Source: a virus
Lineage: Duplodnaviria; Heunggongvirae; Uroviricota; Caudoviricetes
Direction: 5' to 3' (one strand)
IMG/VR virus record: IMGVR_UViG_3300022699_000502
Location: 1-64,000 of that record
Length of the DNA stretch: 64,000 nucleotides
Notes under the pieces: model-generated
Database searches by the model: none
Told to the model about the DNA's origin: nothing
Seen by the model: the letters and a program-made list of their open reading frames with translations, nothing else
In this document: positions 5,909 to 63,542 of the stretch, in pieces
Position numbering within the stretch: the first letter of the stretch is position 1
Layout of the letters: every line of letters begins with the position of its first letter
Made by a program: the position numbers and the translations under genes

Positions 5909-6205
5909 TCACATTGCTAATATTGACTCACACACATATACCGTATTCCCAATGTTTACGGGGATAGCACCTACTATCTCCCTCAACATATCATAATCGC
6001 ATTTCCTAACATCAACAATCTTATTTTCGTAAGTATTATCGATGTCTCGTTCAATAACTGCGCTGGGAATGCGATCATTAAATGTCATAATAGAGAATAT
6101 ATATTCTCTAATTCTCATCAAATACCGTCCCGACCCAATTTTCCTATATTTTCTCATTAATATACCACAGGTCTTGTATTTATAATGTCGGATGGTTCCA
6201 ACCAA
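5909..6205 (-). CDS. hypothetical protein (98 aa)
   Basis: coding-strand ORF. Confidence 0.4.
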   Translation of the reverse strand: MVGTIRHYKYKTCGILMRKYRKIGSGRYLMRIREYIFSIMTFNDRIPSAVIERDIDNTYENKIVDVRKCDYDMLREIVGAIPVNIGNTVYVCESILAM

Positions 6206-7821
6206 CCTCTTCTAGCTATACCTACTCCAAATCTTCTAACAAAATCCATCATAGTTGTTCCGTGTGCATCGCTCCCGATCTCATACATAACATCGGTATC
6301 CATTATCATCTCATCGTTCAAGTCTAAGCGTTGAGGTAAACTATTTATTTCAAATATAATTCCATAATCTTCATGGAATGTATTTATATGTTTTGGTTGT
6401 AATACCTCATTTCCTTCTCTTTCACCTATAACTCTACCAGTTGGATGAGCCAACACATCTATAGAGTTTGTGCTGAAAGCATTATGTAACCTCTCAACTA
6501 TATTTTCATCTGTTATGCTTTGATGGACTGCGCCTATAACATAATCATAGTAGTCCAACCAATCCTCTTTATATATGTCACCGTCTTTCATTATATCAAC
6601 TTCAACACCCTTCAATATCTTTATGTCATGTTTATCGTTCAAATCATCTATGAGCATATTCCTATTTATTATGTCGTTCTCGTCCATATCTCCTAACGGT
6701 CTTTGATGGTCTGCTATACCAACATATTCATAATCTAACTCTATTGCTTTACTCACAATCCCTGGTATATCTACGTTTCCATCTGAATAATCGCTATGTA
6801 TATGAATATCACCCATTATATCTGATTCTTTAACCAAATCTGGTAAGTTATTGTTGAGTGCTGCTTCATGTTCACCTCTATCATCGCGTAATTCAGGTGG
6901 TATATATTCGAATCCCAATTTTTCGTATATTTCCCGTTCCTTTTCACCTGCAATCTTTTCATCGGTTTCCATGTCTGCCATCCTATATTCGTTCAGTGTC
7001 CAACCATACTGTTGTGCTCTCTTCCTCACCTTTATGTTGTGTTCTTTGCTTCCTGTAAAATATTGGATTGCTGCACCCCAACACTCAGGCTCTATGACCC
7101 TCACATCTATTTGTAGACCGTTATCCAACATAACGGAAGTTTTGGTGTCACCGCTTACCAATACCTTCATGACATCCTCGTAATTTTTAGTGGCTTCCAT
7201 AATCGTATCGCTATCGCCTGTTGTCAATATATCTATGTCACCGACTGTTTCCTTGCGCCTTCGTAGACTGCCCACAATTTCCAATTTATTCGTCTTTTCA
7301 GATAAAAATGAGGCCAATGAATGTGCATTATTCCACGCATCATCTAACCTATATCTGTCTGAAAATTTACGTAAATATTCAATTCCTTCTAATATATTCT
7401 GTTCAGTCTTTTTACCAAACCCGCTTAAATTCCTGATTGTACCTGATTGTGCGACTTCTTCTAAATCATCTAACGACTCAACACCTAACTCGTCATATAA
7501 TTTTTTGACGGCTTTTTTACCAATACCTTGTACCTTCTTCACTTCTTTAAGCCCATCCGGTATCTCTTCCTTCAAATTTTCTAAATATTCGCAAGTACCG
7601 CTTTCAATTATTTGTTCTATTTTTGAAGCAGTACTATCACCAACACCTGGGATCTCTTTCAAATTACCTTTCTCATACAGTTCCCTTATGTCCCAATCAG
7701 TGCTACTTATATTCCTAGCTGCATTTCTATACGCCCTTATCTTATATTGGTTTTTATCCAATATCTCCATCAATTCAACTATCTCATAAAATTTATCCGC
7801 TATTTCTTTCTTATTCATCAT
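6157..7821 (-). CDS. family X DNA polymerase (Pol beta-like core with C-terminal PHP domain)
   Basis: 554 aa; helix-hairpin-helix motifs IPGVGDSTASKI and GIGKKAVKKL; nucleotidyltransferase GSLRRRKETVGDIDIL; PHP motifs HIHSDYSDG, ADHQ, LAHP, GSDAHG. Confidence 0.85.
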   Translation of the reverse strand: MMNKKEIADKFYEIVELMEILDKNQYKIRAYRNAARNISSTDWDIRELYEKGNLKEIPGVGDSTASKIEQIIESGTCEYLENLKEEIPDGLKEVKKVQGIGKKAVKKLYDELGVESLDDLEEVAQSGTIRNLSGFGKKTEQNILEGIEYLRKFSDRYRLDDAWNNAHSLASFLSEKTNKLEIVGSLRRRKETVGDIDILTTGDSDTIMEATKNYEDVMKVLVSGDTKTSVMLDNGLQIDVRVIEPECWGAAIQYFTGSKEHNIKVRKRAQQYGWTLNEYRMADMETDEKIAGEKEREIYEKLGFEYIPPELRDDRGEHEAALNNNLPDLVKESDIMGDIHIHSDYSDGNVDIPGIVSKAIELDYEYVGIADHQRPLGDMDENDIINRNMLIDDLNDKHDIKILKGVEVDIMKDGDIYKEDWLDYYDYVIGAVHQSITDENIVERLHNAFSTNSIDVLAHPTGRVIGEREGNEVLQPKHINTFHEDYGIIFEINSLPQRLDLNDEMIMDTDVMYEIGSDAHGTTMMDFVRRFGVGIARRGWLEPSDIINTRPVVY

Positions 7822-23381: not shown

Positions 23382-23553
23382 CATCTTCCTCCAAATCTGT
23401 CATTGTTACACTTTTTATGTTCCTCATGGGATAATATATTAGTCCATCATCAAAGTATATTTCTAGGTTTTGCTCCGACATATGTACGATTTCTTCTGTT
23501 GTTATCTCTTCCATATCTCCATTCATAAAATGGATTGTTACTTTTGTTTTCAT
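23374..23553 (-). CDS. hypothetical mini-protein (59 aa; hand-translated)
   Basis: MKTKVTIHFMNGDMEE...; ATG overlaps the ligase gene's stop as ATGA. Confidence 0.35.
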   Translation of the reverse strand: MKTKVTIHFMNGDMEEITTEEIVHMSEQNLEIYFDDGLIYYPMRNIKSVTMTDLEEDDG

Positions 23554-24437
23554 TTAAATGCCTCCCTATTTATAACTTGTCTTAATACTTCTTCGCACCT
23601 AGTCCCCACCATATTCCTTATTTCTTTGAAGTTTAGTTCCCAATTATTCCATATTATTTCGTCCCACTCTTCACTCCATATGTCTTTGTATACCGTATCC
23701 ATGAGTTGCGGCATTATCTCCATCTGTATGTTTCTGTTGTATTCGTCTCTTATCTTATATATGTTTTTTTCTATGCGGTGGTTAGTTACGTATTTGCTTA
23801 CGAATTTTTCGTTGTCGTCTGCTGCCCTGCCTTTTGGTTTCCCGTAAACTTTATCCCTTTTCTCAAAAAATTCTTCAGCTCGTTTTTTACTGAAGAACTG
23901 CGTACCATAACACTTTAATACCACTCCTTCTGCCTTACCATCTCTATATTCACTGTCTGGAACCTCTATGTCCTTTGGTGATACATGTCCTACAATAGTT
24001 ATTAAGGGCACCATATCAAAATTTAAGTCTTCAAATACTAACTGTTTTTTTGCATAACTTACAAATTGTTCATTTTCCTCGTCATATATGTCGAACCACA
24101 ACACATCAGGCATATTTTCCCAATCATACTCTAATGCATGCGGTACCATCTGTTCACCAAATAATGTTAAGTTATTATGTCCAAAATGTTCACATAATAT
24201 TTGTGACATCTCTTCAGGTGTTGTTTTGTTGTTAACATAATCTATTGTTTGCTGGAACTGTTCGCGATTACCGTTTAATCCAACAACGTTTCTACTCCTA
24301 AACAAAAAGCCATCGTTATTCAGTTTAACACCAACATTAGCACCATCCAACTTTTCTTCGATTATAACATCTCCAGAACCCTGTAAATTACTTATGTCTT
24401 CGCTCCCAAACTCACTTATTTTTGGATACTTCTTCAT
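23550..24437 (-). CDS. ATP-dependent polynucleotide ligase (nucleotidyltransferase superfamily; RNA-ligase-like)
   Basis: 295 aa; motif I EEKLDGANVG (KxDG); motif IV AEGVVLK (EGxVxK); small size and KLDGxN favour an Rnl2/Rnl3-like RNA ligase over a replicative DNA ligase. Confidence 0.7.
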   Translation of the reverse strand: MKKYPKISEFGSEDISNLQGSGDVIIEEKLDGANVGVKLNNDGFLFRSRNVVGLNGNREQFQQTIDYVNNKTTPEEMSQILCEHFGHNNLTLFGEQMVPHALEYDWENMPDVLWFDIYDEENEQFVSYAKKQLVFEDLNFDMVPLITIVGHVSPKDIEVPDSEYRDGKAEGVVLKCYGTQFFSKKRAEEFFEKRDKVYGKPKGRAADDNEKFVSKYVTNHRIEKNIYKIRDEYNRNIQMEIMPQLMDTVYKDIWSEEWDEIIWNNWELNFKEIRNMVGTRCEEVLRQVINREAFK

Positions 24438-27403: not shown

Positions 27404-27475
27404 TTGCGGGTGGAGGAATCGAACCTCCGACTACCGGGTTATGAGCCCGGTGCCCTACCACTAGACCAACCCGCA
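27404..27475 (-). tRNA. tRNA-Met (anticodon CAU), initiator-like
   Basis: folds by hand as a 72-nt cloverleaf; 7-bp acceptor stem (U1:A72), U8, A14, D-loop GG, anticodon stem CCGGG/CCCGG, loop CUCAUAA with U33 and A37, 5-nt variable loop, T-arm GGAGG-TTCGATT-CCTCC; three G:C pairs next to the anticodon loop; no encoded CCA. Confidence 0.85.
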
Positions 27476-27477
27476 CA

Positions 27478-27771
27478 TTATCCTATAACATTTTTTATGG
27501 TGAATTCCCATCCACCCTTTCCGTACGTCCCTTCAACACTTACTTCCATCACATCATCTAAAGGCACCACAACTATGTCCGCCGTTATACCCTCATCATA
27601 GATGTCACCTCGTCCATCATTCTTAAAGTCATCAGCAACCATTGAACCACTATTGAACGTACTCGCATCGATATGTAGTTTGTTTATTGCATCTAATCTG
27701 TTTTTTGCCTCGATTGTACCTAAAATTTCGACTCTACCAAATTTTTTGATTCCAACCATATATTCCATCAT
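27478..27771 (-). CDS. hypothetical protein (97 aa)
   Basis: coding-strand ORF between the tRNA and aRF1. Confidence 0.4.
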   Translation of the reverse strand: MMEYMVGIKKFGRVEILGTIEAKNRLDAINKLHIDASTFNSGSMVADDFKNDGRGDIYDEGITADIVVVPLDDVMEVSVEGTYGKGGWEFTIKNVIG

Positions 27772-28754
27772 TTCACCTCATACCTCAATATTAGGCCGTG
27801 TTCGAATGTATCCTTGAAGTTTTTCCCATAATCCGTTGATGTATCTATATCTATTATGTTCGTTCCATATTTTTCAGCTAACTCTTTATGTTCGTCGTTC
27901 GTAGTTAGTAGTGTGTCGCCGGCTCCCATCCGTAATACCCTCTGTACGTCCTGCCCGTACGTCGCCATATCTTGTGTTATCTTCTTTTTGAACTCCTCTA
28001 TTTTTTCTTTCTGTTTACCTTTGTGTTTCTCTTCTATTGTTTTATGTGCCTTGTCCGTTAGTTCATTTAGGCCGTTTATGTTAGTGTACTCCACTGTATA
28101 TGTGTCTTGTGCTCCTATGTCGCAGTTTTTTAGGAAGTTTGTGGGGGTTAGGCCGGTCCCTCCCACAAACACGTAGTCGTGTGAGCCTATCAAATGCTTT
28201 GCTTTCTCACATACTTTCTTGTAGTATTGTTTTGCGCGCTCCTCTATGTCTCTTTCGAACCTTTGCGCCGATTGTCCACCCTGGCTATGTTTACTTGGTA
28301 CTAATGAATTTATGTGTTCTAATTCCATCGTACTATTATTAACGTGTTCACCTATGACGGCTTCTTTCCGGTCTAACACTATAAGACCTATCGATATTTT
28401 GTCTTTGTTGAGTACATCTAGTAGGGGTTGTACATAAAATGTGTTATCACAATAATACTTGTTTGGTACCTCACCTTCCACTTCGTATACCTCACATACT
28501 TCTTGTTTATCGACATCTCCTGAGAATACTACCAAAGATGTATCTAAATTGTTTATTCCTTTTAAAACGCGAATAATACGCTTTAGAGCAGCTTTAACGT
28601 TTCCCCTCGTCTCCTTACTCTTGATGTTATCGGATTTTGCGAGCTGTTGTTGTAATTTACTCTTCATCGCATTAATGTTATGGTCTTTATTTATGTATAC
28701 ACTTATCAGTTCCGTGTTGTTACCCCTCATGTCTTTTAGGTCCTCTACATCCAT
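27768..28754 (-). CDS. class-I peptide chain release factor, aRF1/eRF1 family
   Basis: 328 aa; N-term LKDMRGNNTELISVYI (compare eRF1 LEAARGNGTSMISLII); NIKS motif; YYCDNTFYVQPL (eRF1 YxCxxxF YLCDNKFH); GGQ motif HSQGGQSAQRFER. Confidence 0.8.
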   Translation of the reverse strand: MDVEDLKDMRGNNTELISVYINKDHNINAMKSKLQQQLAKSDNIKSKETRGNVKAALKRIIRVLKGINNLDTSLVVFSGDVDKQEVCEVYEVEGEVPNKYYCDNTFYVQPLLDVLNKDKISIGLIVLDRKEAVIGEHVNNSTMELEHINSLVPSKHSQGGQSAQRFERDIEERAKQYYKKVCEKAKHLIGSHDYVFVGGTGLTPTNFLKNCDIGAQDTYTVEYTNINGLNELTDKAHKTIEEKHKGKQKEKIEEFKKKITQDMATYGQDVQRVLRMGAGDTLLTTNDEHKELAEKYGTNIIDIDTSTDYGKNFKDTFEHGLILRYEVK

Positions 28755-37363: not shown

Positions 37364-37804
37364 TTGCGTATTATTTATATTATGCGATGGACTCCAGAAG
37401 ACGAAAAAGAGTTAATGGATTGGTATGAGCTGTGTGGTAGTGATATCCCGAGTTTGTTAAATAAAGGGTATACTAAGAGTCAGATTAGGAGTAAGGCGTT
37501 CAGGATGGGATTATCAGAGAAGAATAAGTGTGGTCCTGGAAAATGTGATTTGACGGAACAGCAACTACTAGATATGTACCATGGTGAATACATGACAATC
37601 GAGCAGATTGCCGAGAAGACTGGGTGGGCCGAACAAACCATCTATAGGAAGATGCACGAGTATGAAGTGCCGTTAACCGGCAAGTTTCGGTATACAAAAT
37701 GTAGTGAGTGCGGGAAACGTATTAAGGCGGAGCGCGCTGATATATTGGATGATGATGCGGTTTTATGTGATATGTGTAAGGTTATGCGTAATTTAGGTAT
37801 CTAG
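37364..37804 (+). CDS. HTH-repeat DNA-binding protein with C-terminal zinc ribbon
   Basis: 146 aa; repeated ~40-aa HTH-like units ending RMGL / HEYEV, resembling the N-terminal repeats of the adjacent LAGLIDADG protein; CSECGKR ... CDMC. Confidence 0.5.
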   Translation: MRIIYIMRWTPEDEKELMDWYELCGSDIPSLLNKGYTKSQIRSKAFRMGLSEKNKCGPGKCDLTEQQLLDMYHGEYMTIEQIAEKTGWAEQTIYRKMHEYEVPLTGKFRYTKCSECGKRIKAERADILDDDAVLCDMCKVMRNLGI

Positions 37805-38872
37805 AGACTTTTCAAATTGTCTTTTTTTACGTTCTAAATACGTTTGTGCATCATCATATAAATATTCGTAAATATTCCTTTTATCGGTTTGTTTTCCGTA
37901 ATGTACAACGTAGTTTTCCTTTGATGGGTGTTTATATATGTCGTTCTTCGAATTTATTATAGTACCAATTATTTCGTTTACGTCTTGCATAAGTTGACGT
38001 GACCCGCATATCGTGAAACTATTACCGCTAATACTGCCGTCTGCATCAAACAATCCCCTTATGAAATGTCTGTGGTATTTTTCGGGTATATCTGGCATAT
38101 ATGTCTTATGTGACTTACACGGAACGACACCATATTTTTCTAAATCCTCAACTATCTTCTTTCGGGTTATCGATAAAGCAAATCCGTCCTTACCCGATTC
38201 GTGTATGCTGTGCGACGAACTCATTGCGTTTCTTAGTTTCAAAAGATGGTCGGTATCTTTCGCGTTCAATGATACAGTTAAACTATATCCCGTACCACCT
38301 TCTCCTGTTTTACCTATGTTTCCATCACCAACTATGAACCCCAACCAATATGCCTTTTCAGAACTATCCATCTCTTCGAAATAATCTTCGTCTACTTCTT
38401 TATATGAGTACTTTGTGTTCAGCCCATACTTCTTCAGATTCCTATAGACTGTATGCGGCGAAATATTGAGTGCATCCGCAATTTCCTGTTGTGTCATATC
38501 CTTATCATGGTACATTGTGTTTAGCATATTTTCCGTCGAATCGTAATCATTCAAGCTAGTTCTACATAATCCCATATCCTTCAAATAATTCGATATTGTT
38601 GATGTTGAAACCGAGAAAACCGAAGCAATTTTTTCTCGCGACAGTCCTTCATCAATATACATCCGTTTTAACATATCCTTATCTAATTCTTCTTGTACTC
38701 TCGTTTTGTTTTCGGACCAATCAGTTCGTTCTTCTATTAACCCAAACTTGATTATATGTTCATTGATATGCGATTTATCTACGTCTAGCAGACCCGCAAT
38801 GCGCTTGTGTGAATACTTTTTGTCTACGTACAAGTTCCGCAAAATCCGCTTCAATAACTGTTCTGCATCCAT
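37793..38872 (-). CDS. free-standing LAGLIDADG homing endonuclease with three N-terminal HTH repeats
   Basis: 359 aa; two LAGLIDADG motifs LGFIVGDGNIG and GLFDADGSIS; N-terminal repeats (each ending K-F/M/Y-GL). Confidence 0.75.
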   Translation of the reverse strand: MDAEQLLKRILRNLYVDKKYSHKRIAGLLDVDKSHINEHIIKFGLIEERTDWSENKTRVQEELDKDMLKRMYIDEGLSREKIASVFSVSTSTISNYLKDMGLCRTSLNDYDSTENMLNTMYHDKDMTQQEIADALNISPHTVYRNLKKYGLNTKYSYKEVDEDYFEEMDSSEKAYWLGFIVGDGNIGKTGEGGTGYSLTVSLNAKDTDHLLKLRNAMSSSHSIHESGKDGFALSITRKKIVEDLEKYGVVPCKSHKTYMPDIPEKYHRHFIRGLFDADGSISGNSFTICGSRQLMQDVNEIIGTIINSKNDIYKHPSKENYVVHYGKQTDKRNIYEYLYDDAQTYLERKKRQFEKSLDT

Positions 38873-38879
38873 AATATAA

Positions 38880-39725
38880 CATTGTTGCCGCGCTATTTAA
38901 ACTTTTTGGAATGTTTGGCCAAATAACCACAAAATATGCTGTATTTTTGTCGTTAATCGTATAAAATACCAAAAGATTTAAATATTATATATGTGTATAT
39001 GTATATGTGCGGTCTTTCCTATTTAAATGTTGCGGTGAGTTAGCGGGGTATTTAAAGGTTGGGGTGGACAGATTTTCATATTTTTTTCATACCCCTGTCC
39101 CCACGGGGGCATTTTCCGGGAAAAGTATTTAACGTTCACCAACTAACTCTGCGAGCTACACCGGATAGTTGCTGTATAGCTGCAATTTACTCGTAGGTGA
39201 TTTTCGGTACAAAATTTGTAGATGGCGGGGGGTTTATATACCCCTTTATATACGCAAATTATATGCCAACATTTGGGCGCCCGAAACCCTATATAAACCC
39301 CCCGCAAAAAATCGCGATAAATGTATACTTTCATAGAATTAATAATATTATAGCGCATTGATATATCCCTGCCGATTTTGCGCTCTAGATGGGAGTTACT
39401 CGCAGATATAGCGCAATCCTGAGAGCTACTCGCAGAAGGTTGTTTACCCCCCCTAAAAAGCGATATATCCCTGCAAATTTTGCGCAATTTTAGCCTTCTC
39501 CTATATAAAGTTTTTGCATAAAGTTTATAAACCCCCCGGCAAAAATTCGATAATATTATAGATTTATCGCAAAACCGATATATCCCTGCTAAAAAGCGAT
39601 ATATCCCTGCAAAATCACCGCAAACTTTATATACTACTTGGGTTTTGTCGGTTTTGGGAAAAACCCAAAAACTACCCTTGGGCATCGAGTCCAGAATCTT
39701 TATATATCCCTTCAGGGATATACTA
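38880..39725. repeat. iteron- and palindrome-rich ori-like or strand-switch control region
   Basis: 4 copies of CGATATATCCCTGC (39360, 39463, 39577, 39596); inverted pair GGGGGGTTTATATA (39226) / TATATAAACCCCCC (39289), plus a TATAAACCCCCCGGCAAAAATTCGATAA repeat (39517); TATTTAAA x4 (38888-39056); TTACTCGCAGA x2. Confidence 0.6.
39702..39721. promoter_or_regulatory. perfect palindrome TATATCCCT-TC-AGGGATATA (operator-like) 6 nt before the ATG of 39727..40284
   Basis: 9-bp arms; its half-site ATATCCCT is the core of the four upstream iterons. Confidence 0.6.
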
Positions 39726-40599: not shown

Positions 40600-40800
40600 G
40601 AGCTGTGCTCACTTACGCATGGTATGATGGAAGATACTGTGTGATAATGCCATAAAGTGCCTCACTTACGGTGGATCATAAAGGTGTGGTCACTAATGTA
40701 ATGGGTTTAGTGTAATGGGGGGTGTGGGATATGCGAAAATTCGCATATTAGAAATTGCGCGTTTTAGAAATTGCGCATTTACTAAATTGCGATTACAAAA
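40600..40800. repeat. left flank repeat block of the GC-rich module
   Basis: TCACTTACG at 40609 and 40662; palindrome ATGCGAAAATTCGCAT at 40731-40746; tandem TTAGAAATTGCGC x2 (40748, 40765). Confidence 0.5.
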
Positions 40801-40940
40801 TTTTTAAAATTCCCCCAAAATCCATAAGGTTTATATAGGTTTAAACCTATATGGTGTATTGAGTAGGTTCGTGGTGCGTAATATGTGTTATATTACGCCA
40901 GAAACCGAAAATTAAGAAAATTGTATTGGAGGCATAAAAT

Positions 40941-42792: not shown

Positions 42793-42895
42793 GATGCCGG
42801 AGCTGTATTGTAAGAGGTGCGGAATATATCAGGAGTTTGAGAAGGTACCCGGTGGATACGAGTGTAAGGAGTGCGGGTACGTCGTTGAAACGTGA
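42779..42895 (+). CDS. zinc-ribbon mini-protein (~38 aa)
   Basis: MRGIEMPELYCKRCGIYQEFEKVPGGYECKECGYVVET; preferred over the long overlapping track ORF 42623..42895. Confidence 0.35.
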   Translation: MRGIEMPELYCKRCGIYQEFEKVPGGYECKECGYVVET

Positions 42896-42924
42896 AACCC
42901 TTCCTTTTCTTTTTTTAACGTTAA

Positions 42925-43100
42925 TTGCGTCACTTACGCCATAGATTGGTTAGTGGTCGGCGCGTCACTTACGCCATAAAATTTGATGCGCATTTTCGCA
43001 ATTTAGAAATTTCGCCGTTTACGCATTTGCGCAGTTTACGAATTTTCGCATACACAAAATACTAGTTGCGAATTTTCGCAATCTGCGAATTTGCGCAGGG
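42925..43100. repeat. right flank repeat block of the GC-rich module
   Basis: TCACTTACG at 42930 and 42965 (variant TCACTAACG at 43241); palindromes ACGAATTTTCGCAT (43038), TGCGAATTTTCGCAA (43067), TGCGAATTTGCGCA (43085); TTTAGAAATTTCGCC. Confidence 0.5.
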
Positions 43101-43505
43101 TCCCGCCTAGCGCGCCGGTACATGGTCCGGTTGGTCCCGGACGCGTACCCGGTCCACAATTTGTTGAAAACGAAGCCGCGGGCTCACTTGGGCAATTTAA
43201 GGTGAACCCGGAAAAATTTGTTGAATACCGGGGGGTCCCCTCACTAACGCAATAAATTTTATTTACGGTTTTAAATATTTTATAAGATTTGTTAGAGGTA
43301 TAAAATATTTTTAATTTTAAATAATTTATTGTCCTAAATAGCACAACAGTAATTATTTAAAATTTAAATATTATAAGGATAATTTAAACTAAAATCAGTA
43401 AATATGACGATTGTATGACAAAATTAACTATTTGTCATAAAACTGTCTGACGGTGTTTAATTAATATATTTTTATTATTTAGTTATTTTTTAAATTATAC
43501 TTATC

Positions 43506-43524
43506 GTTTAGATGACATCTAAAC
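43506..43524. repeat. palindrome GTTTAGAT-GAC-ATCTAAAC (left copy)
   Basis: 8-bp perfect inverted repeat with 3-nt spacer; same arms as 46409..46429. Confidence 0.5.
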
Positions 43525-44017
43525 ATAAAATTAGTGTTTATTTTTATAAAAATAAAATTTCAATAGGTTTATATGTAAAGTCTGCGTTAATTAAAAAAAA
43601 GAAAAAAAAAAAGAGGTCGGCTGGGCATACCTCTCAAAAAGGTTTGTAGGTTAATTACCTATGAATCTTGAGATAAAAATAAGCAAAATTGTAGGTAATA
43701 ATTTAAATCCTTATCTAATTTATTAAGTAATTTCATAATAACTTTATTTGGTCGGTATTACTGACTAAATAGAAATTAAACATTAAACTATCATACAGTT
43801 ATTAACTACCCTTAAAATAGGTTTAAACAATATTCAAGAGTAAATTAATACATACTTTTAGTATGCTTAAACATTAATCCTAATAAATTAGATAATAGGT
43901 TTTTTAGAATTTTTTTGGATAAACCAAATATAAAAAATCAATAATTCTGTATGTATGAATTTAAGTAGTATATACAGAATTAAAAAACCATTAAAATATA
44001 TATGTGAGGCGAATAAA

Positions 44018-44500
44018 ATGAAAAAAGAAGATATAGATAAATGGATAGAAGAAGCGAAAATAACAACAAACAACAAACAAAATAGTCTAAATATGAATGT
44101 AAGGGCAGATAGGTTATTATACCTATTTATCGGAGATAAAGAAAATAGGAAAATCCTTTATGGGAATGGATTACAGCAAAAAAGGATAAGAGATAGTCTG
44201 GTAAAATTAGGAATAGAAGAAGATAGTATAACCAGTCAGACCATTAGGAAACAAATGAGAAAAAACGCAGTAATAGATTATAACTGTAAAGAAACTAATG
44301 GAGATAATCCAGAAAATAAAACAAACAAACCTATATGGGCTAATAAAAGAAATTTCATTTATTACAGAGTTAATCCATATTATGTTAAGGAAAATATGGA
44401 TTTAAGGAAAGTCAGTAAAGTTGAAGTCAGTAATACAGTTAAGTCTATCATTAAATTCATTAAAAACCATCGACCAAAATTATATAATCTAAAGAAATAA
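44018..44500 (+). CDS. basic K/N-rich protein P1 of the AT-rich island (160 aa from the GAGG-linked ATG)
   Basis: GAGG 8 nt upstream of the ATG at 44018; very AT-rich codons; possible HTH near RIRDSLVKLGIEEDSITSQTIRKQMRKN. Confidence 0.5.
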   Translation: MKKEDIDKWIEEAKITTNNKQNSLNMNVRADRLLYLFIGDKENRKILYGNGLQQKRIRDSLVKLGIEEDSITSQTIRKQMRKNAVIDYNCKETNGDNPENKTNKPIWANKRNFIYYRVNPYYVKENMDLRKVSKVEVSNTVKSIIKFIKNHRPKLYNLKK

Positions 44501-44514
44501 AAACCTTTTATTTT
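44499..44514 (+). terminator. intergenic oligo-T element AAAAACCTTTTATTTT
   Basis: repeated after P1, P2 and P4; followed by TTTTTATATAAA TATA-like box. Confidence 0.35.
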
Positions 44515-44540
44515 CTTTTTTTATATAAATGGTGATAAAA

Positions 44541-44930
44541 ATGAATTTAGAAGATATGTATAAATTAAACATAAAATTCAATAATAGATATAGACTTAAG
44601 AATACAATTAAGAAAATAAAAAACAATAGTGAATACAGTAATTATGAGAAAATAAAAAGAATCAGTAGGTTAAAAAAGACCACAAAATTACATAATTGGT
44701 ATAAGTTATTTTCTTATTTTATAAAAGATAAGAAAATAATAACTGATACCGATTTAATTTTTACTGCATACAGATATATAACCAAATATACAGATATAAA
44801 AATAACCACAGTAATAAATAAATTTAATGAAATAGAATCATCATTAAAAACTAAATGGATAAAAGAAAAATCATTTTGGGTTAATATACAAAATGATGAA
44901 TTTTATCTTATCAGAAGTCTATGGAAATAA
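44541..44930 (+). CDS. basic K/N-rich protein P2 (129 aa)
   Basis: GGTGATAAAAATG start context. Confidence 0.5.
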   Translation: MNLEDMYKLNIKFNNRYRLKNTIKKIKNNSEYSNYEKIKRISRLKKTTKLHNWYKLFSYFIKDKKIITDTDLIFTAYRYITKYTDIKITTVINKFNEIESSLKTKWIKEKSFWVNIQNDEFYLIRSLWK

Positions 44931-44935
44931 AATAA

Positions 44936-44950
44936 AAACCTTTTATTTTT
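44936..44950 (+). terminator. intergenic oligo-T element AAAAACCTTTTATTTT
   Basis: second copy. Confidence 0.35.
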
Positions 44951-44994
44951 TATTTTTATATAAACTAAAAAACCTTTAATTTAGATGTGATAAA

Positions 44995-45423
44995 ATGATA
45001 TATGAATTTAATAGACCAGAAGAAATAAATTTAAAACCCTTTAAGGTTATTTTCAATAAAATAACCCTATCTGAAAATAGAAATCATTTAAAGATAAAAC
45101 TATCCTATTGGGATAATTGCCAAAGGTTAAGAGAAATAAATAAAAGGAAAAAAGAAACTGACTTATATATAAAAATACCAAAGAAATTAACTGATGATAT
45201 TAAGGTAAATATCAATAAAACAATAAACCTAAATTTAGAATTGGAATTAATCCATACAGTAATTAAAAATATAAAATATTTAATTTTACATAAAAATAGA
45301 AATTACAGTAAATATCATTATACAAAAATACAGAAAATTATAAGATTTTTAGAAGATATAGAAAATAAAATTTCCAGAAGGATAGATGTTAAACCATTAA
45401 ATGACTTATTTGGTGGTGAATAA
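44995..45423 (+). CDS. basic K/N-rich protein P3 (142 aa)
   Basis: GATGTGATAAAATG start context. Confidence 0.5.
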   Translation: MIYEFNRPEEINLKPFKVIFNKITLSENRNHLKIKLSYWDNCQRLREINKRKKETDLYIKIPKKLTDDIKVNINKTINLNLELELIHTVIKNIKYLILHKNRNYSKYHYTKIQKIIRFLEDIENKISRRIDVKPLNDLFGGE

Positions 45424-45424
45424 A

Positions 45425-45790
45425 ATGATAAAAAATACTTCTCTTATTGGATTAGGGAAAATAGTACATTTAAGAATAAACCAAATAGTAACAGATATAT
45501 CAGAAAATACAATTTATTTAGAATTTAATAAACATAATAGTGATAAAAACCATACTGATACAATAAGAATAATTGAAATAGATAAAAATAACATTAAAAC
45601 CAATAAATATAATGACCCAATTACTGAAATAACAATAAATGATGATACATTTATTAAAATAACATTTAATCAGTTATATAGTTGGATAGATACAATAATA
45701 TCATTTATTACGATAAATAATCAGATAGAGTTAAAAAGAAAATTAGAGAAAATACAGTTATTCTTAAATGAATATATAGATTATATCTAA
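45425..45790 (+). CDS. K/N/I-rich protein P4 (121 aa from the GGTGA-linked ATG)
   Basis: GGTGGTGAATAAAATG start context; abuts the P3 stop. Confidence 0.5.
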   Translation: MIKNTSLIGLGKIVHLRINQIVTDISENTIYLEFNKHNSDKNHTDTIRIIEIDKNNIKTNKYNDPITEITINDDTFIKITFNQLYSWIDTIISFITINNQIELKRKLEKIQLFLNEYIDYI

Positions 45791-45804
45791 AAACCTATTT
45801 TTTT
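45789..45804 (+). terminator. intergenic oligo-T element AAAACCTATTTTTTTT
   Basis: third copy (variant). Confidence 0.3.
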
Positions 45805-46057
45805 TATTATATTTTTTTGAGAATTTTTATTGGAATTTTTATATATAAATTAATTAATCCTTAATATCTATTATCCTATTTTCTATCTTAACATATAGGT
45901 TATAGATTTATCAAAATTAGGTTATTAGAAGTCTTATAGTGGGGTATATTACCGATTGAATTAATTGATTAAGGGTTAATAACATTTAGACTTTTTAGAT
46001 ACAATATAAAAATTATGATAATAGAAAATATAAATCTAATTTTGTGTGTTTTATCAT

Positions 46058-46222
46058 ATTTCTATTTACTCAATTCTTATAAATTAGTTAATTGTTAAAT
46101 TTTTATTTCTATAAACCTTAATCCTATAATTAACCTATATTTTATTTCTATAAACCTTAATCTTATAATAAGATATTTCTTATTTCTATTTACTTAATTC
46201 TTATATTAATTAGTTATTTCTT
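46058..46222. repeat. nested direct repeats R1-R2-R2-R1
   Basis: R1 ~36 bp TATTTCTATTTACT(C/T)AATTCTTATA..TTAGTTA at 46058 and 46180; R2 ~29 bp TTTATTTCTATAAACCTTAATC(C/T)TATAAT at 46097 and 46140. Confidence 0.5.
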
Positions 46223-46408
46223 AATTGATAGGTTAATATATATTTTATATCTATAAATTAAAAAATTCTGTAATTTTTTTTTTATAAGATTAATCCTAAT
46301 ATTAATTAAAATTTAATTTTTTTTAGATTGAGTTAATAAAAATATTTTCTATATTGAGATATTTTTATAAAATATTTTTAGCCGAATCTCAAATAAAAAT
46401 CATCTAAT

Positions 46409-46429
46409 CGTTTAGATATTATCTAAACG
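46409..46429. repeat. palindrome CGTTTAGATA-T-TATCTAAACG (right copy)
   Basis: 10-bp arms; core GTTTAGAT..ATCTAAAC is identical to 43506..43524; preceded by a partial CATCTAAT. Confidence 0.5.
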
Positions 46430-46784
46430 GAGAGATGAATTTTTTATATTCTTATAAAACAATTAAGGTAAATTAATTAATTAGTAGGTTTATTAAAATA
46501 TCTCTATATATGTGTGTATGACATATCGTCAGACATATTTATATTGAGATTTTAAATATTATACGGTATTAAATTGAGAATTTAAAATAATTTTATTTGA
46601 GAAAAATTTTCATTAATTATTTAAAATTTTAAATAATTAACAAATCTGTAAAATAATTTTTAATTATTAAAATCACAAAATAAATTTCATTTGTCACTGG
46701 TTATTTAAATTATATACAAATTTAAAATTTTTTTACCCTCCAATTATTCCAAAACATTTATATAGTACCCCATTTATATAATAT

Positions 46785-47318
46785 ATGATGGGTTGCCCAA
46801 TATGTGACCATGAGAACAGGGATGATATCGAAGCGGAAGTCGCGAACGGTTTCCCTAAAAAGATAATCGCGCAAGATATTGGATGCAGTATCGAGGACAT
46901 ATTAGACCACATGGAAAACCACTCAAAATACGGCCAGCCCGGTGGTGAGGACGCTACCATGGAGGACCAAATTGGGGGCCACTACAAAAATATGTACCCT
47001 CCCAGGGACTCATACGAAAAATACGACGTGCTGAACACGAATATGGAGCGCCTTACAGACCGGTTCGACAGCTTGATGGAGAAAGACCATCTCGACAAAG
47101 ACGACACAAAACAGATAGTTAGTATGGCGCGCGAACTCAGGCAAACAGTGATGAATTTGGCCGAATTAGAAGGCGAATTACACAAGGAGCTTGCCCTAAC
47201 AAGGGCGCAATTTGAAGCGCTCAAAGAAGCCGTTCTACGCGAACTTGACCCCGACACGCAAGAGGTCATAATCAACGCGATCGATGAGTCCCAAATAGAA
47301 GTAGAAGCTGACCAATAG
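46785..47318 (+). CDS. terminase small subunit candidate
   Basis: 177 aa directly upstream of TerL; N-terminal CPICDH and HTH-like AQDIGCSIEDILDH; C-terminal coiled-coil, the usual TerS architecture. Confidence 0.55.
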   Translation: MMGCPICDHENRDDIEAEVANGFPKKIIAQDIGCSIEDILDHMENHSKYGQPGGEDATMEDQIGGHYKNMYPPRDSYEKYDVLNTNMERLTDRFDSLMEKDHLDKDDTKQIVSMARELRQTVMNLAELEGELHKELALTRAQFEALKEAVLRELDPDTQEVIINAIDESQIEVEADQ

Positions 47319-47327
47319 GCGAATATT

Positions 47328-47546
47328 ATGTCGACAACAATGACGTTTGAAGCGAACGGATATTCCTTTAAAAGACCATCTGGGATAAAAATAGCCCACG
47401 AGGTACAAGATGTGACCGGCAGGATGCCCGACGGTATATCTGATAACGGTGACCGTATAACATTCATATGGAATAAGAGCTTGCCGTACGAACTCAAGTG
47501 TGCGGTGCGTGACCTGATGGATAGATATAGGTATGAAGAATTATGA
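47328..47546 (+). CDS. hypothetical protein (72 aa)
   Basis: between TerS and TerL; start overlaps the TerL start region (ATGA). Confidence 0.4.
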   Translation: MSTTMTFEANGYSFKRPSGIKIAHEVQDVTGRMPDGISDNGDRITFIWNKSLPYELKCAVRDLMDRYRYEEL

Positions 47547-48967
47547 CGAGCGAACTCCAAAAACAAATGGCCATCGAGATGAAGGCCTTTAGAGATCCGC
47601 GCATCTTCGTAGAAGATATTCTAGGTATAGATTGGTTGTGGCCAGTCCAAGAAGAACTAATTTACGACTTCTATGACGGTAATTACCAACAGCTAGTTGC
47701 GGTCCTAGGTCAACGTAGCGGAAAGACAACTGCGGCATCAATAATAGCTACCTATGAACTATTTAAACTATTAGCCATCGGTAAACCATGTTCATATTAC
47801 GATTTGCCAGCAGGCCAGGACCTATATATTATATGCACCGCGTCAAGCGCGCAACAGGCAAAGGATACGATATATTCTCAGGTGGAAGCCCGTATTGAAA
47901 ATTGCGAATGGTTTAAAAATTACGGATATACAAAACATTCACGCGAATTCATATTTGAAACAGATGAAAACGAAATATATTTAAGATCAGAACATTCAAA
48001 TTCGTCGTCACTTGCAGGGCATACGTGTAAAGCCGTTCTTCTTGATGAAATGGCACGGTTCAAAGACACAGGCGGTCATACATCAGCCGATATGGTGTAC
48101 GACACACTTAGCAGAACACTCGCTACATTCGGTCGCCAAGGAAAAATGGTAGTTATATCATCACCGCTCTTGAAGGACGACTTCCTCATGAACTTATATA
48201 GGTCGGGGAAAGAAGATCCTCGGACACTCACAAAGCATTACGCGACATGGGAAGCGAACCCGAACATAACAATGGAGGATTTGGATAGCGAATTCCAAAG
48301 GAATCCTGAAGCAGCGTGGCGTGATTTCGGTGCACAACCGTCATCTTCATTAGAAGGTTATTTCAAAGAACAGGATCGTATCGATGACGTAGTAGATACT
48401 TCCATAGAGTTGTGCCCTGATGAATATACACCACCCGACATCCCATCCATCGAACAACCATGTTACATAGCGGGCGACCCAGCTACTAAAAACGACGCGT
48501 TCGGTATAGCTATGTGCCACCAAGACCCTAAAACTGAAAAAATATTAGTAGATATTGCGCATAGGTTCGAACCAAAAGGCACTAAATCAGCAGAAGTTGA
48601 TGCACAAAAGGTCGCGGAATTCATAGTTGAGTTAGCCGAAAAACATAACGTTGTATCATTCACAACAGACGTATGGTCATTCCAAAGAGCATTACAGCGC
48701 ATAGAACAGGCCGGCATACCAGTCGAACAAAACCACGCGCTCAAAGAGGAATATGACCACCTTAAAGAATTAATTTACACAAATCAAATTAAGTTACCCG
48801 ACACTAAAGTCGTGGAAGAATTAAAATCATTAGAGATCAAAAACGCAAAGAAAGTCGACCACCCATCAAAAGGTAGCAAAGATGTATCCGATGCTGTTTG
48901 TAACGCAGTATGGGCCCTTGAACAAAAAAGTGGCGATACGGAAGAACCGATCGCGCTTGTATTTTAA
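47543..48967 (+). CDS. terminase large subunit
   Basis: 474 aa; Walker A LGQRSGKTT, Walker B VLLDEMARF, C-terminal RNaseH-like nuclease acidic residues (GDPATKNDAFGIAMCH, TTDVWSFQ). Confidence 0.85.
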   Translation: MTSELQKQMAIEMKAFRDPRIFVEDILGIDWLWPVQEELIYDFYDGNYQQLVAVLGQRSGKTTAASIIATYELFKLLAIGKPCSYYDLPAGQDLYIICTASSAQQAKDTIYSQVEARIENCEWFKNYGYTKHSREFIFETDENEIYLRSEHSNSSSLAGHTCKAVLLDEMARFKDTGGHTSADMVYDTLSRTLATFGRQGKMVVISSPLLKDDFLMNLYRSGKEDPRTLTKHYATWEANPNITMEDLDSEFQRNPEAAWRDFGAQPSSSLEGYFKEQDRIDDVVDTSIELCPDEYTPPDIPSIEQPCYIAGDPATKNDAFGIAMCHQDPKTEKILVDIAHRFEPKGTKSAEVDAQKVAEFIVELAEKHNVVSFTTDVWSFQRALQRIEQAGIPVEQNHALKEEYDHLKELIYTNQIKLPDTKVVEELKSLEIKNAKKVDHPSKGSKDVSDAVCNAVWALEQKSGDTEEPIALVF

Positions 48968-62400: not shown

Positions 62401-62644
62401 AAATAGTGTTGGGGCTTTAACAACTAACACAATAACAGTTAATAATTCGATGAGTGCAGATTCGATCACAGCAAACACAACGTTGGATTGGTCTGCAGGA
62501 GAAGCATTTCCAAATATTATTGAGCAGAATAGCGAACCAAGCTTGTCCTCTGGAGCTTGGGGAGTTTGGTATGATAATGATGACGACCAAATGTGGCTTA
62601 TCATTAACCACGGAGGAGATCAAAGAAAAGTAGAGATTGCGTAA
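56435..62644 (+). CDS. giant repetitive D/H-rich fibre-like (receptor-binding) protein, 2069 aa, GTG start
   Basis: internal repeats (TDxxAITAINxDxDHGSTAQHDY x4, VKTGDDEVYxL x3, DGTSWxGAxAEAAVG x2, LSDLxDVxxxxYTDGYVLRAxGS x4); HxxxHxxGGxDEL motif at the N-terminus and twice near the C-terminus; extremely acidic. Confidence 0.8.
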   Translation: MHDKIHGVSHEYGGEDEISVDSLSGLLVDPQYTRVLDSGAYEGTSYTLDFDTGLRAQLDVDDVVVTLDAILSDLDDVSGISYDTGKVLVGDGSEFHADYLSHSALLGLTDDDHLEYLPRDGQRAMYGDLDMGSQEITNVTYVDGIDISEHDHDGDAPNVPMEGLLDINGFSKLDLGKYVDRPIPGIQDRVYTAYDSQVGFWYDDGSSWRALTTKNHQSLTGIKSDDHHSRYTDGEAITAINTDGDHGSTAQHDYYTDSDAITAINNDTDHGSTAQHNYFSGSHDDLTDVSVNDHISNITDIPNRDHNDLNNIGTSDHHVKTGDDEVYALTRYQSAQPGTPSAGMTYMDSDNDIIYVYDGTSWQGAKAEAAVGILSDLGDVTNVDYTDGYVLRADGSKYVSTTLNHDDLTNVNSDDHHSRYTNSEAVTAINDDSDHGSTAQHDYFSGSHDDLTDVSATDHIQNLNQIPTRSHDDLQNIDSSDHHVKTGDDEVYGLIHYDDSSPGDSQLGLAYVDTYDNILYVNDGTSFVGVKGASPSIFLEDIQDVSDVSYNAGYVLRADGSQYATSTLRHTDLTNVQPEQHHVAFVGLEDNQGVVVQPAPDDRVQFTDDEIVNADAVDSTVAFSIDQSKISHDSISGVSPDDHHNAFIGLEDEDGAVVDPAIDNRIQILGDDTISIVGSASVLNLSASVGNIHHDSLLGLTAHNHHYKTVDDEVYGLTRRQSNAPGSPSAGMTYMDAENDVIYVYDGTSWSGARAEAAVGQLSDLSDVQNIGYTDGYVLRASGSYYETSQLSHTDLGDIGSSAHHTRYSDEEAQDAVGPIVTGGTNIDVTYNDGVPSIVVDNTQSKYTDEEAQDAVGNIMVGTGATTVDYDDSTDTITIDSTQLNEETVQDYAWDVLDGTQTLINVTYDDQNDNVDFVVRESEINHNNLINGSQIDAHHTRYTDMEAINAVESYGALDISVTNSDMVDSYHASAFVLESGDSMSGNLKVPSLKFSDTVESDDHAGVILSSETTNDKHTYIHNYDNSLLFIDDRETVNTSPVPDINNTSDIFNDTKSQSAQWTDWDAAKPVTITIDSNNHDSSSIDYIYFDFENGRYCSDIKAEYYDGSWHTFYNTTNNDDELPFIHKSEFSEQVSGWIQLKFTFDGTLAYTDDLRIDEIGVFSPDEDEGFVMKRSGGNIYDTIDMNQNSIINASAYNGVDINTHITDADAHHWHDDHYGLIRYQSVPPGTTKFEQVYIDTDDDTLQVYDGGAWVTIAGGGTAPQNLSDLNDVTDVSYSAGYTLRANGSQYVTAQLDHSDLAGLSPDNHHTAFTPTDHDSRDHSPVASTMDLNELAAPSSQLDINYQDLDNVGVIDFDTTPSTTSHQEGRVRWNNTDKTLQADTEITDVSLQVGQEMYVRVQNNTGSTINNGDVVYINDGSSDNPTIGLAQANDKNKAHRTIGMATHDISDGSIGYVTTYGRIRGLDTSSYTLGDELWLSPDTAGGVTDTEPVGLDNRIKVGVVIRSDASDGIIFFNKTQFFNASDIKLNNAANASYTNLQQKLDHTAATGIYEGGAITDNGDGTIDISGGSAQIKTSSSWTAEVLEIDFSSATNLTPTDDDSTYYYLDYNGGSPTISSTTSRDSINFQDELYIGKVYRNGTDITIINTSQQVAGITTKGLYSTYYKDEVKRVTGLTLSETGNRYLQITAGLLFYGYTRIDISAKDTSGTDTFTYWYRDGSGGWTTTTGNTQVSNQQYDDGTGTLANIENNDYGVFWVYMGHDGKLHVQYGQNSYNKYADALNATIPDAPDLLGTFCTFIAKIIIEEDGTNFDDVLIPWMNGGVGGATVTDHGNLSGLGDDDHLQYLLHDGSRAMSGNLDMGTNNITNVGNVDGVDVSDHSTRHEDGGADELNVGGLSGELADPQTPKTHASTHYDGGTDELDAADLAGASGTSGQYLKTDGSTATWADIEAVSDHGNLTGLDDDDHTQYLLVDGTRTMSGNLNMDGNNINSVGALTTNTITVNNSMSADSITANTTLDWSAGEAFPNIIEQNSEPSLSSGAWGVWYDNDDDQMWLIINHGGDQRKVEIA

Positions 62645-63542
62645 CGATAATAGAGGTAAAATAATGGTAGAACAATATAAAAATAAAAAAGTATTGCAGA
62701 AGTTATATTATGATAAGGAAATGAGTATGTCAGAAATAGGTAATAAATTTAATGTTTCACAACAAACAATAATGTATTATATGGACAAATATGATATTAA
62801 AAGAAGAAGTTTATCGGAAGCACTCAAAGGTGAAAATGCTCCTATGTATGGTAAAACACATAGTGAAGAAACTAAAAAGAAAATGTCAGAATCACATAAG
62901 GGTGTAAACCATCACCAGTATGGGAAAAAACTTCCTCAGGAAGTTAAACAAAAAATATCAGAGTCTATGAAGGGAGAAAAAAATCCTATGTACGGAAAGT
63001 TAGGTAAAGATGCTCCTTGGTATAATAAAAGTCATTCCGAAGAAACTAAAAAGAAAATGTCAGAATCACATAAGGGTGTAAACCATCATTTCTACGGCAA
63101 GAATTTATCTAAAAAACATAAGAATAAGATATCAGAATCTATGAAAGGAAAAACATGTAGTGAGGAAACTAAGCAGAAAATTTCCAAAGCATTATCAGGT
63201 GAAAATGCTCCGTGGTATGGTAAATCAGGTAAAGATAATCCTCATTGGAAACCTGATAGTAATAATTATGAGATTTGGAGAGAAAGAACTTTATCAAGTA
63301 ATAAGTATCAAAAAGTTAGAAAAAAAGTACTAAAAAGAGATAATTATAAATGTCAATTGTGTGATAATAATATGAAATTAGAAGTTCATCATATTATACC
63401 AATGAGAAAACTATGGGATATAGATAATAAAAAATTGGTTACAGATATAAATAATCTTATCACGTTATGTAAGAAATGTCATCAAAGTATAAAAGGTAGG
63501 GAAAAGGAATATAAAAAGATTTTTAAGGAGATTGTAAAATAA
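62637..63542 (+). CDS. HNH homing endonuclease with NUMOD3 DNA-binding repeats
   Basis: 301 aa; repeated (T/S)HSEETKKKMSESHKG... NUMOD3-type units (5 or more); C-terminal HNH CQLCDN..EVHHIIP..N..LCKKCH; N-terminal HTH. Confidence 0.75.
   Translation: MRNDNRGKIMVEQYKNKKVLQKLYYDKEMSMSEIGNKFNVSQQTIMYYMDKYDIKRRSLSEALKGENAPMYGKTHSEETKKKMSESHKGVNHHQYGKKLPQEVKQKISESMKGEKNPMYGKLGKDAPWYNKSHSEETKKKMSESHKGVNHHFYGKNLSKKHKNKISESMKGKTCSEETKQKISKALSGENAPWYGKSGKDNPHWKPDSNNYEIWRERTLSSNKYQKVRKKVLKRDNYKCQLCDNNMKLEVHHIIPMRKLWDIDNKKLVTDINNLITLCKKCHQSIKGREKEYKKIFKEIVK

Follow-up and report, generated by a model that had tools for sequence, protein, structure and literature searches.

Paired palindromes at the inner ends of degenerate inverted repeats bounding an AT-rich gene island of an uncultivated archaeal-type tailed virus

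A pair of palindromes with identical arms, termed PAL-A, was identified in the first 64,000 nucleotides (the window) of the IMG/VR record IMGVR_UViG_3300022699_000502, which belongs to an uncultivated archaeal-type tailed virus of the Caudoviricetes. It is well supported that the two copies are the cores best retained in a pair of imperfect inverted repeats (about 300 bp each) that bound an AT-rich island of 3.4 kb (43251-46692). This island (also called the cassette) encodes four ORFan proteins (P1, P2, P3 and P4) and is located between the early-gene block and the conserved promoter of the putative small terminase gene (terS). The palindromes may represent the dyad cores of the degenerate inverted-repeat borders of a foreign cassette that was acquired as a unit, each bound by one and the same dimeric protein, a tentative reading that is held at slightly under an even chance. 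Accessory islands of ORFans are common in viral genomes, and their arrival and control are seldom readable from the sequence. The island described here keeps a recognizable frame, consisting of long degenerate inverted repeats with one perfect dyad each, which offers a handle on the acquisition or regulation of a cassette in the archaeal tailed viruses, for which hardly any regulators or mobile cassettes have been characterized. If the dyads were the recognition sites of an island ORFan, a first function would be assigned to a protein without a family; if they are only operator-like relics, the island would be an ordinary accessory island.

The sequence GTTTAGAT-N3-ATCTAAAC is found exactly twice in the window, at positions 43506 and 46410. 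PAL-A copy 1 (43504..43525) reads TCGTTTAGAT-GAC-ATCTAAACA and contains a perfect 9+1+9 palindrome (GTTTAGATG-A-CATCTAAAC), whereas PAL-A copy 2 (46408..46429) reads TCGTTTAGAT-ATT-ATCTAAACG and contains a perfect 10+1+10 palindrome (CGTTTAGATA-T-TATCTAAACG); no strand is assigned to either copy. The copies are 2904 bp apart, and four open reading frames (ORFs) are located between them (44018-45790). The preliminary description of this DNA, made from the letters alone, had reported two palindromes with identical arms enclosing P1 to P4, and this is borne out by the window sequence and the positions of the ORFs. The 10-bp arms that it gave are correct for copy 2, the arms of copy 1 being 9 bp long. 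In both copies the symmetry continues to a single central base, and the centre carries a compensatory difference, with G..C in one copy and A..T in the other. Copy 2 is nested in a longer imperfect palindrome (46400-46438) of the form TCATCT..AGATGA. As single-stranded DNA, copies 1 and 2 fold with -5.5 kcal/mol (z -4.0) and -10.5 kcal/mol (z -5.5), respectively.

Several controls were used to assess whether such a pair could arise by chance. A scan of the window with up to two mismatches revealed no PAL-A match beyond the two copies, the 8-mer half-site has no further occurrence in the window, and no match with up to three mismatches was found in 8.9 kb of additional contig sequence on the left. 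The motif, for which the preliminary description had considered an occurrence at many random positions, is hence not scattered over the genome, with two copies in 64 kb and none in the extra 8.9 kb. At least two PAL-A matches were obtained in none of 100 dinucleotide-preserving shuffles of the whole window. Because the island is much more AT-rich than the window, simulations were also run at the first-order composition of the island itself. An identical palindrome occurring twice (8-nt arms, loop of 1-5 nt) was found in 0.25% of 2000 such first-order Markov simulations, and in none of the 2000 when arms with at least two G/C were required. The PAL-A pair is real and non-random. Searches for the PAL-A pattern elsewhere returned 14 single matches in IMG/VR, all of them unrelated, and more than 120 unrelated matches among those listed for metagenome contigs, a listing in which the source contig did not appear. 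Two loci with two sites each among these listed metagenome matches (L037 and L104) were rejected as unrelated, GC-richer hairpin repeats. The 7-mers of the PAL-A half-site show no enrichment at the island promoters, as estimated from window counts.

The left inverted repeat (TIR-L, 43251..43545) has its outer end at the left edge of the AT-rich island and PAL-A copy 1 at its inner end. The right inverted repeat (TIR-R, 46390..46692) stops 57 nt short of the terS promoter and has an orthologue at positions 201-465 of the contig of a close relative, L017; like the palindromes, the two repeats are given without strand. Alignment of TIR-L to the reverse complement of TIR-R gave a score of 86 with 76% identity over the aligned columns, as compared with 42 +/- 9 (maximum 61.5) for 204 equal-length segments from the island interior in either orientation and 53 for the two borders in direct orientation; over all controls, the z of the repeats is about 3.5-5. 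When PAL-A was removed, the outer 253 and 262 nt scored 67 vs 37-48 in three kinds of controls (z 3.4-4.4). The alignment starts on the left at the first AT-rich base, and the outer ends match the jump in GC content, which rises from about 20% inside to 40-60% outside them. The repeats are degenerate and contain many indels, and their longest identical run is an AT-only 14-mer outside the palindrome. The similarity may run weakly inward to about 43600 and 46310, so that the repeats are possibly about 350 bp long. In the preliminary description the palindromes had been proposed as borders of a cassette. They do belong to the border inverted repeats, but they sit at the inner ends of these repeats, about 255-265 bp from the true borders, and are not borders themselves.

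Other symmetric motifs were found in the same repeats. The 9-mer TGTCTGACG has one occurrence per strand in 64 kb (43444 on the plus strand; 46527 as the reverse complement). The two copies are mirrored and lie outward of the palindromes, one 62 nt before palindrome 1 and the other 99 nt after palindrome 2. The left PAL-B-type motifs (43404..43452, no strand) comprise ATGACGATTGTATGACA, TATGACA-N12-TGTCATA and TGTCTGACG, and the right PAL-B (46515..46535, no strand) is the imperfect palindrome TGTATGACA-TAT-CGTCAGACA. No further copy of a repeat-like, PAL-A-like or PAL-B-like sequence was detected in the window and the 8.9 kb of extra contig sequence. The PAL-B pattern had five unrelated, GC-rich matches in IMG/VR, and no additional inverted symmetry was found in the interior non-coding flanks of the island.

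The island differs from the rest of the virus in composition and in the proteins that it encodes. The GC content is 0.11-0.26 at about 43250-46750 vs 0.35-0.49 along the window; with the edges set at 43251 and about 46700, it is 0.13-0.26 within the island and 0.37-0.5 beyond it. The genes P1 (44018..44500), P2 (44541..44930), P3 (44995..45423) and P4 (45425..45790) are all on the plus strand and encode ORFan proteins of 160 aa (181 aa from a start at 43955), 129 aa, 142 aa and 121 aa (129 aa from 45401) with isoelectric points (pI) of 9.9, 9.9, 9.8 and 5.9, respectively. The four genes are co-oriented and complete, and each has a GGTGA-type ribosome-binding site. The GC content at third codon positions is 0.13-0.23 in P1-P4 vs 0.32-0.57 in the flanking genes, and the pI of 9.8-9.9 of P1-P3 compares with values of mostly 4-5 for the flanking viral proteins. 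Open frames of 120-180 codons at 20% GC are not expected by chance (about 0.9^120, an estimate from stop-codon frequencies).

Nothing credible was found for P1-P4 in Pfam, PHROGs, NCBIfam and PADLOC (E<=0.1), and the sub-threshold matches DUF5889, phrog_18476 and TIGR01489 were disregarded. P1 contains a helix-turn-helix (HTH)-like stretch at residues of about 58-104, recognized by eye only. A search of 5.8 billion clusters and a HMMER search of 1.84 billion sequences revealed no homologue of P1, returning just P1 itself and the spurious protein P0079. P0079, which was matched in the 1.84-billion search (P1 residues 58-104, 31% identity), is a protein of 1302 aa with about 19 near-identical repeats of about 65 aa; it looks like a translated tandem repeat and was rejected as a homologue. 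P1-P4 are singletons without cluster mates at 90% identity. No match was obtained for P2 and P3 by tblastn against phages or for P3 in IMG/VR, and there is no paralogy between P3 and P4. Comparison of the island DNA with phage and plasmid records gave one low-complexity match and nothing else.

Six of the 11 window copies of AAAAACC, a motif that resembles the BRE/TATA part of the backbone promoter (BRE, TFB-recognition element), are inside the island. The island genes have AAAAACC and A/T-box motifs and T-runs before and after each gene, all of them sequence-only signals. These backbone-like motifs, together with the GGTGA-type ribosome-binding sites, suggest that the island genes are adapted to the expression system of the virus. 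A post-stop motif, (A)AAACC(T/C)TT..T-run, occurs after each island gene (44495-44515, 44929-44950, 45788-45805), and the same motif is present at 42895-42917, after the last backbone gene before the island.

One close relative of the virus was found. This relative, L017, is a 7.1-kb Logan contig whose large terminase (TerL) and terS are 87% and 86% identical to those of the window, respectively. The terS search returned this close relative and two distant ones on tiny contigs, and in the more distant relatives (TerL <=55%) either the order of the genes is different or the contigs are very short. The first 548 nt of L017, upstream of terS, have 17-21% GC. Nearest to the promoter, this stretch shares 90% identity with the window; beyond that, 265 nt are orthologous to TIR-R (score 70.5, 77% identity, controls 49-55), and the 200 nt upstream have no convincing placement on the island. 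At the position of PAL-A copy 2, L017 reads CGGTTCGATG-T-CATCGTAACG, which includes one compensatory pair (A:T to C:G). The motif, whose absence from relatives had been entertained in the preliminary description, is thus represented in the closest relative by a related but imperfect palindrome at the homologous place. The PAL-A half-sites are identical within the window genome, whereas 4 of 16 positions differ from L017. About 100 nt downstream, L017 contains TGTCTGACG-ATT-CGTCAGA, a better version of the window PAL-B at a homologous position. The AT-rich region and its dyads may predate the split of the two viruses; alternatively, related elements may use the same site.

The most favoured explanation is that one and the same sequence-specific, dimeric protein would bind both palindromes as double-stranded DNA. 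The binder would be either a regulator of the virus or one of the island proteins P1-P3, which are candidates because they are basic. Both ends of the cassette could then be recognized or controlled symmetrically, for instance via TATA-like boxes located about 15-55 bp from each palindrome. The virus would have acquired the cassette as a single unit bounded by repeats, comparable to a moron or a MIC (mobile insertion cassette), before the split from the L017 lineage; acquisition as one unit is suggested by the inverted-repeat frame together with the foreign composition. A site for a dimer on double-stranded DNA is favoured because the symmetry continues into what would be the loop of a hairpin and the centre differs in a compensatory manner, because the half-sites are identical in one genome while differing at a quarter of their positions in L017, and because the virus places palindromes on other TATA boxes (39703, 40833). 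Identity within a genome combined with divergence in L017 is as expected if both half-sites track one lineage-specific protein. The 9+1+9 and 10+1+10 palindromes fall within the dyad length of about 15-21 bp used as a criterion for the operator of a dimeric regulator. TATA-like boxes are present near the PAL-A copies (43569 and 46444), but such boxes are frequent in DNA of 80% AT, so that control of promoters via them is an inference; the conserved terS promoter is 330 nt from a PAL-A copy. The odds that PAL-A functions as a site for a dimeric protein appear roughly even.

Several observations weigh against this explanation. A distance of 375-510 nt separates the palindromes from the closest annotated start codons, and neither of them overlaps with a canonical TTTATATA box. 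No binding protein was identified, P1-P3 being basic but without domain matches, and single-sequence AlphaFold2 models were unusable for a fold search (pLDDT of 37 for P1 and 57 for P2). The operator for a dimeric regulator that the preliminary description had put forward is nevertheless the most economical account of the dyad symmetry down to the central base, the compensatory centre, and the identity within the genome combined with divergence in L017. The palindrome of L017 is imperfect, with 7/9 arm pairs, and does not form a stable hairpin (z -1.2). L017 is the sole close relative, and its contig breaks off 548 nt before terS, short of the stretch that would correspond to P1-P4. Without PAL-A, the similarity of the inverted repeats is only moderately significant, and one of 500 Markov sequences reached the score of 67.

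The island could also be a transposon-like mobile cassette, either non-autonomous (MIC-like) or moved by a novel enzyme among P1-P4, in which the inverted repeats would be terminal and the palindromes would serve as subterminal binding or synapsis sites. This is considered unlikely, even though the inverted repeats lie exactly at the compositional borders, the enclosed DNA has a foreign composition and encodes small basic proteins, and the virus has other selfish elements (LAGLIDADG, HNH, and an intein in the TerL of the relative). No transposase or recombinase domain was found in P1-P4 in Pfam, PHROGs, NCBIfam or PADLOC, no second copy exists in 73 kb of genome, P1 is free of homologues in two large protein searches, and P1-P4 are without 90% cluster mates. 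The locus is occupied in L017 too, with no empty site known, and repeats of just 76% identity imply that any transposition would be old. The sole candidate for a flank duplication is an offset 5-nt TCACT (CCTCACTAACGC/AATAAA... and ...TTTCATT/TGTCACTGG), and the left TCACT is part of a backbone repeat family. The mobile cassette suggested in the preliminary description therefore lacks a recombinase or transposase domain, a convincing target duplication, a further copy and an empty site; active mobility of the island is not supported, and true mobility is a minority possibility. Little credence is given to the further proposal that the island is a repeat-bounded selfish element of a novel kind in archaeal viruses, in which a basic ORFan would act as a transposase, recombinase or hairpin-resolving enzyme that recognizes PAL-A and is able to excise, invert or move the 3-kb segment. 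Alternatively, the palindromes may have no present function and be vestiges, intact by chance, of an inverted duplication in an ancestor or of recombination involving two similar AT-rich regulatory regions. Such vestiges would fit with repeats whose identity has fallen to 76%, with many indels, with a longest identical run outside the palindrome and with the imperfect L017 version. Both copies are nevertheless perfectly symmetric, including the compensatory centre; 18 positions are identical in both at a background of 76% identity (p ~0.007, assuming independent sites), and a palindrome with one compensatory pair is kept at the orthologous position of L017, which makes a loss of function distinctly unlikely.

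A replication origin or maintenance module, in which P1-P4 would provide an initiator or a partition-type protein that binds an AT-rich melting region with iterons and dyads, was judged improbable. It would be consistent with the GC content of down to 11-20%, with four direct repeats spaced by about 38-47 nt and five co-oriented TTAATC[CT]T motifs, and with the mirror-symmetric architecture and the site at the early/late junction. However, none of P1-P4 has a recognizable Rep, Orc1, ParA or ParB-like domain, the dyads are 2.9 kb apart, which is much wider than known origin inverted repeats, and the cumulative GC-skew minimum and divergent promoters are located at 37-39 kb instead. An action of the palindromes as RNA hairpins (terminators, 3'-end stabilizers or processing sites of island transcripts) is highly improbable. 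Both copies fold, candidate transcripts flank them, and a T6 run follows copy 2 after 12 nt, whereas copy 1 has no T-run on either strand. The symmetry enters the 3-nt 'loop' up to one central base, a feature that is of no use to an RNA hairpin, and the L017 version, as noted above, is not a stable hairpin. A terminator scan revealed no terminator-like site at either copy, and the preceding stop codons are at least 600 nt away. Hairpins are not known to be required for archaeal termination. Other explanations were rejected outright. An assembly chimera is contradicted by the identity of just 76% between the repeats, by the recurrence of the right junction in an independent sample (L017) and by the presence of the island on two contigs. 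Core sites of tyrosine or serine recombinases were dismissed on account of the odd centre (1-3 nt) and the spacers that differ between the copies, a LAGLIDADG target because such targets are of even length with a 4-nt centre, and a pac/cos site because genes lie in the 2.9 kb that separate the two copies.

The island was compared with known systems. Morons and accessory islands ('ORFanage' regions) have been described in tailed phages (PMC4503421, PMC4378225). The island resembles morons in having self-contained genes that bring promoter-like and T-run signals of their own and lie between conserved modules, a composition sharply unlike that of its neighbours (GC 0.19-0.27 vs 0.4-0.5) and no homologues. 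Long flanking inverted repeats or matching palindromes at both ends, as found in the island, are no defining trait of morons. A moron is usually recognized by its absence from otherwise collinear relatives; here the L017 contig ends inside the AT-rich region and the distant relatives are rearranged. The island behaves like a moron or ORFan island. MICs carry IS- or Tn-type (insertion sequence or transposon) inverted repeats around passenger genes without a transposase (PMC4337579). The island likewise has few passenger ORFs within inverted repeats and no transposase domain inside. MIC repeats are tens of bp long, nearly identical and of a known IS/Tn family, with target duplications and multiple copies, whereas those of the island are about 300 bp long, share 76% identity and occur as a single copy; neither a cognate transposase nor a clear duplication was found.

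Conserved regulatory motifs of the stem-loop type flank novel ORFs in a plastic region of a large virus genome both here and in the PeSL (promoter-stem-loop) cassettes of T4-type phages, where they are thought to mediate cassette shuffling. PeSL motifs are reportedly short and occur as many copies in direct orientation. In contrast, PAL-A has two copies only, which are embedded in inverted repeats, and the virus is of archaeal type and has BRE/TATA promoters. With MICs and PeSL cassettes the island thus shares matched structured motifs at the borders, but it departs from both in copy number, in the type and orientation of the repeats and in the want of a cognate enzyme. PAL-A also resembles the operators of dimeric HTH, winged-helix or ribbon-helix-helix regulators in archaeal viruses and plasmids, being a perfect non-coding palindrome of 19-21 bp with identical half-sites that occurs twice; it differs from them in that it does not overlap with an identified core promoter and its cognate protein was not identified. 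Virus segments of a few kb between inverted repeats include the invertible segments of the Gin/Cin/Hin type and the IS-flanked L segment of the Halobacterium virus phiH. The island shares this size and this bounding by inverted repeats, but, in contrast to invertible segments, there is neither a recombinase domain in its vicinity nor a split or alternative coding joint, its four ORFs are complete and co-oriented, and its repeats are too diverged for homologous inversion.

The genes of the window are also present on the 137-kb JGI contig Ga0248669_100020, which ends at about window position 60,383; the window is therefore derived from the other of two contigs with these genes. The terS promoter (46749..46764, plus strand) is the BRE/TATA-like sequence CCAAAACATTTATATA, which is located outside the island and conserved in the contigs L017 and L022; its 22-mer had no match in IMG/VR. 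The terS gene (46785..47318, plus strand) was assigned by position and a weak PHROG match, and downstream of it TerL (47543-48967) is a large terminase of the MJ0330_N family. The TerL of L017 (site given as L017 1301-3130) contains an intein, and that of the window does not. The virus also encodes a portal, PolX-PHP, an RNA ligase, an aRF1-like protein, and LAGLIDADG and HNH endonucleases. Just outside the window are genes for a Hjc resolvase, an AGOG glycosylase, RNase H and an NAD-dependent DNA ligase (L218 13924-15385, 17563-19413). The promoter CCATTCCCAAAAC(C/T)TTTATATA is common to ten leftward genes. Some promoters of a second class, described below, have a palindrome over the TATA box and the start site (39703-39722, 40833-40852). 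An archaeal host is indicated by the gene repertoire and the BRE/TATA-type promoters. No host could be assigned by a search of GTDB genomes with the TerL profile, in which all matches were of <=30% identity across bacteria and archaea, and a search of IMG/VR with TerL returned no relative.

Further elements were located in the non-coding DNA of the island. A candidate structured RNA or 5' leader (43590..43880, plus strand) lies between TIR-L and P1. Its fold has a z of -3.7 on the plus strand (0/200 shuffles) vs -1.4 on the minus strand, and its several hairpins contain G-U pairs, which are mismatches if read on the opposite strand. A search of Rfam gave no match at 43590-43880, only sub-threshold miRNA noise, and no unusual RNA fold was found in the right non-coding region (45820-46330). 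Four iteron-like direct repeats (46056..46220, plus strand) have the form TTATTTCTAT(A/T)(A/T)AC..TTAAT(C/T)(C/T)TATAA, with spacings of 47, 39 and 38 nt. Five of the six window copies of TTAATC[CT]T are in the non-coding DNA of the island, all on the plus strand (43874, 45854, 46118, 46157, 46290).

The promoter class of the ten leftward genes (1751-37268, minus strand) can also be written CCATTCCCA(A/T)AA(C/T)NTTTATATA. A second archaeal-type class, (G/A)TCCA(T/G)AA(T/G)(C/G)TTTATATA, was recognized, and promoter sites are listed at 39699, 40361, 40830 and 49037. Further repertoire of the window includes a tRNA-Met, an SPFH protein and a radical-SAM protein; the sites are given as 27404-27475 (minus strand), listed first with the tRNA-Met, followed by 6157-7821, 23550-24437 and 27768-28754. 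The selfish elements comprise a HTH-LAGLIDADG protein (37793-38872, minus strand) and a NUMOD3-HNH endonuclease (62637-63542, plus strand). The contigs of three relatives, L017 and L022 at their starts and L018 at positions 1-660, end in or beside AT-rich DNA upstream of packaging genes; either a genome terminus or low coverage of DNA so rich in AT might explain this. A (TTGTC)n run of pentamers stands at the beginning of L018.

The region to the left of the island (42896-43250) is non-coding, reaches up to about 60% GC and is packed with repeats, and it may hold packaging or regulator sites. No unusual RNA fold was detected on either strand of the GC-rich stretch at 43085-43255. The sequence GCGTCACTTACGCCATA occurs at 42927 and 42962, and a degenerate third copy spans the island junction (43238-43254). 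Four to five GCG(A/C)ATTT(T/G)CGCA units are also present at 42896-43250. The palindrome TTGCGAATTTTCGCAA is located at 43066-43081, and its 14-nt core is found again at 40731-40746 in the opposite orientation.

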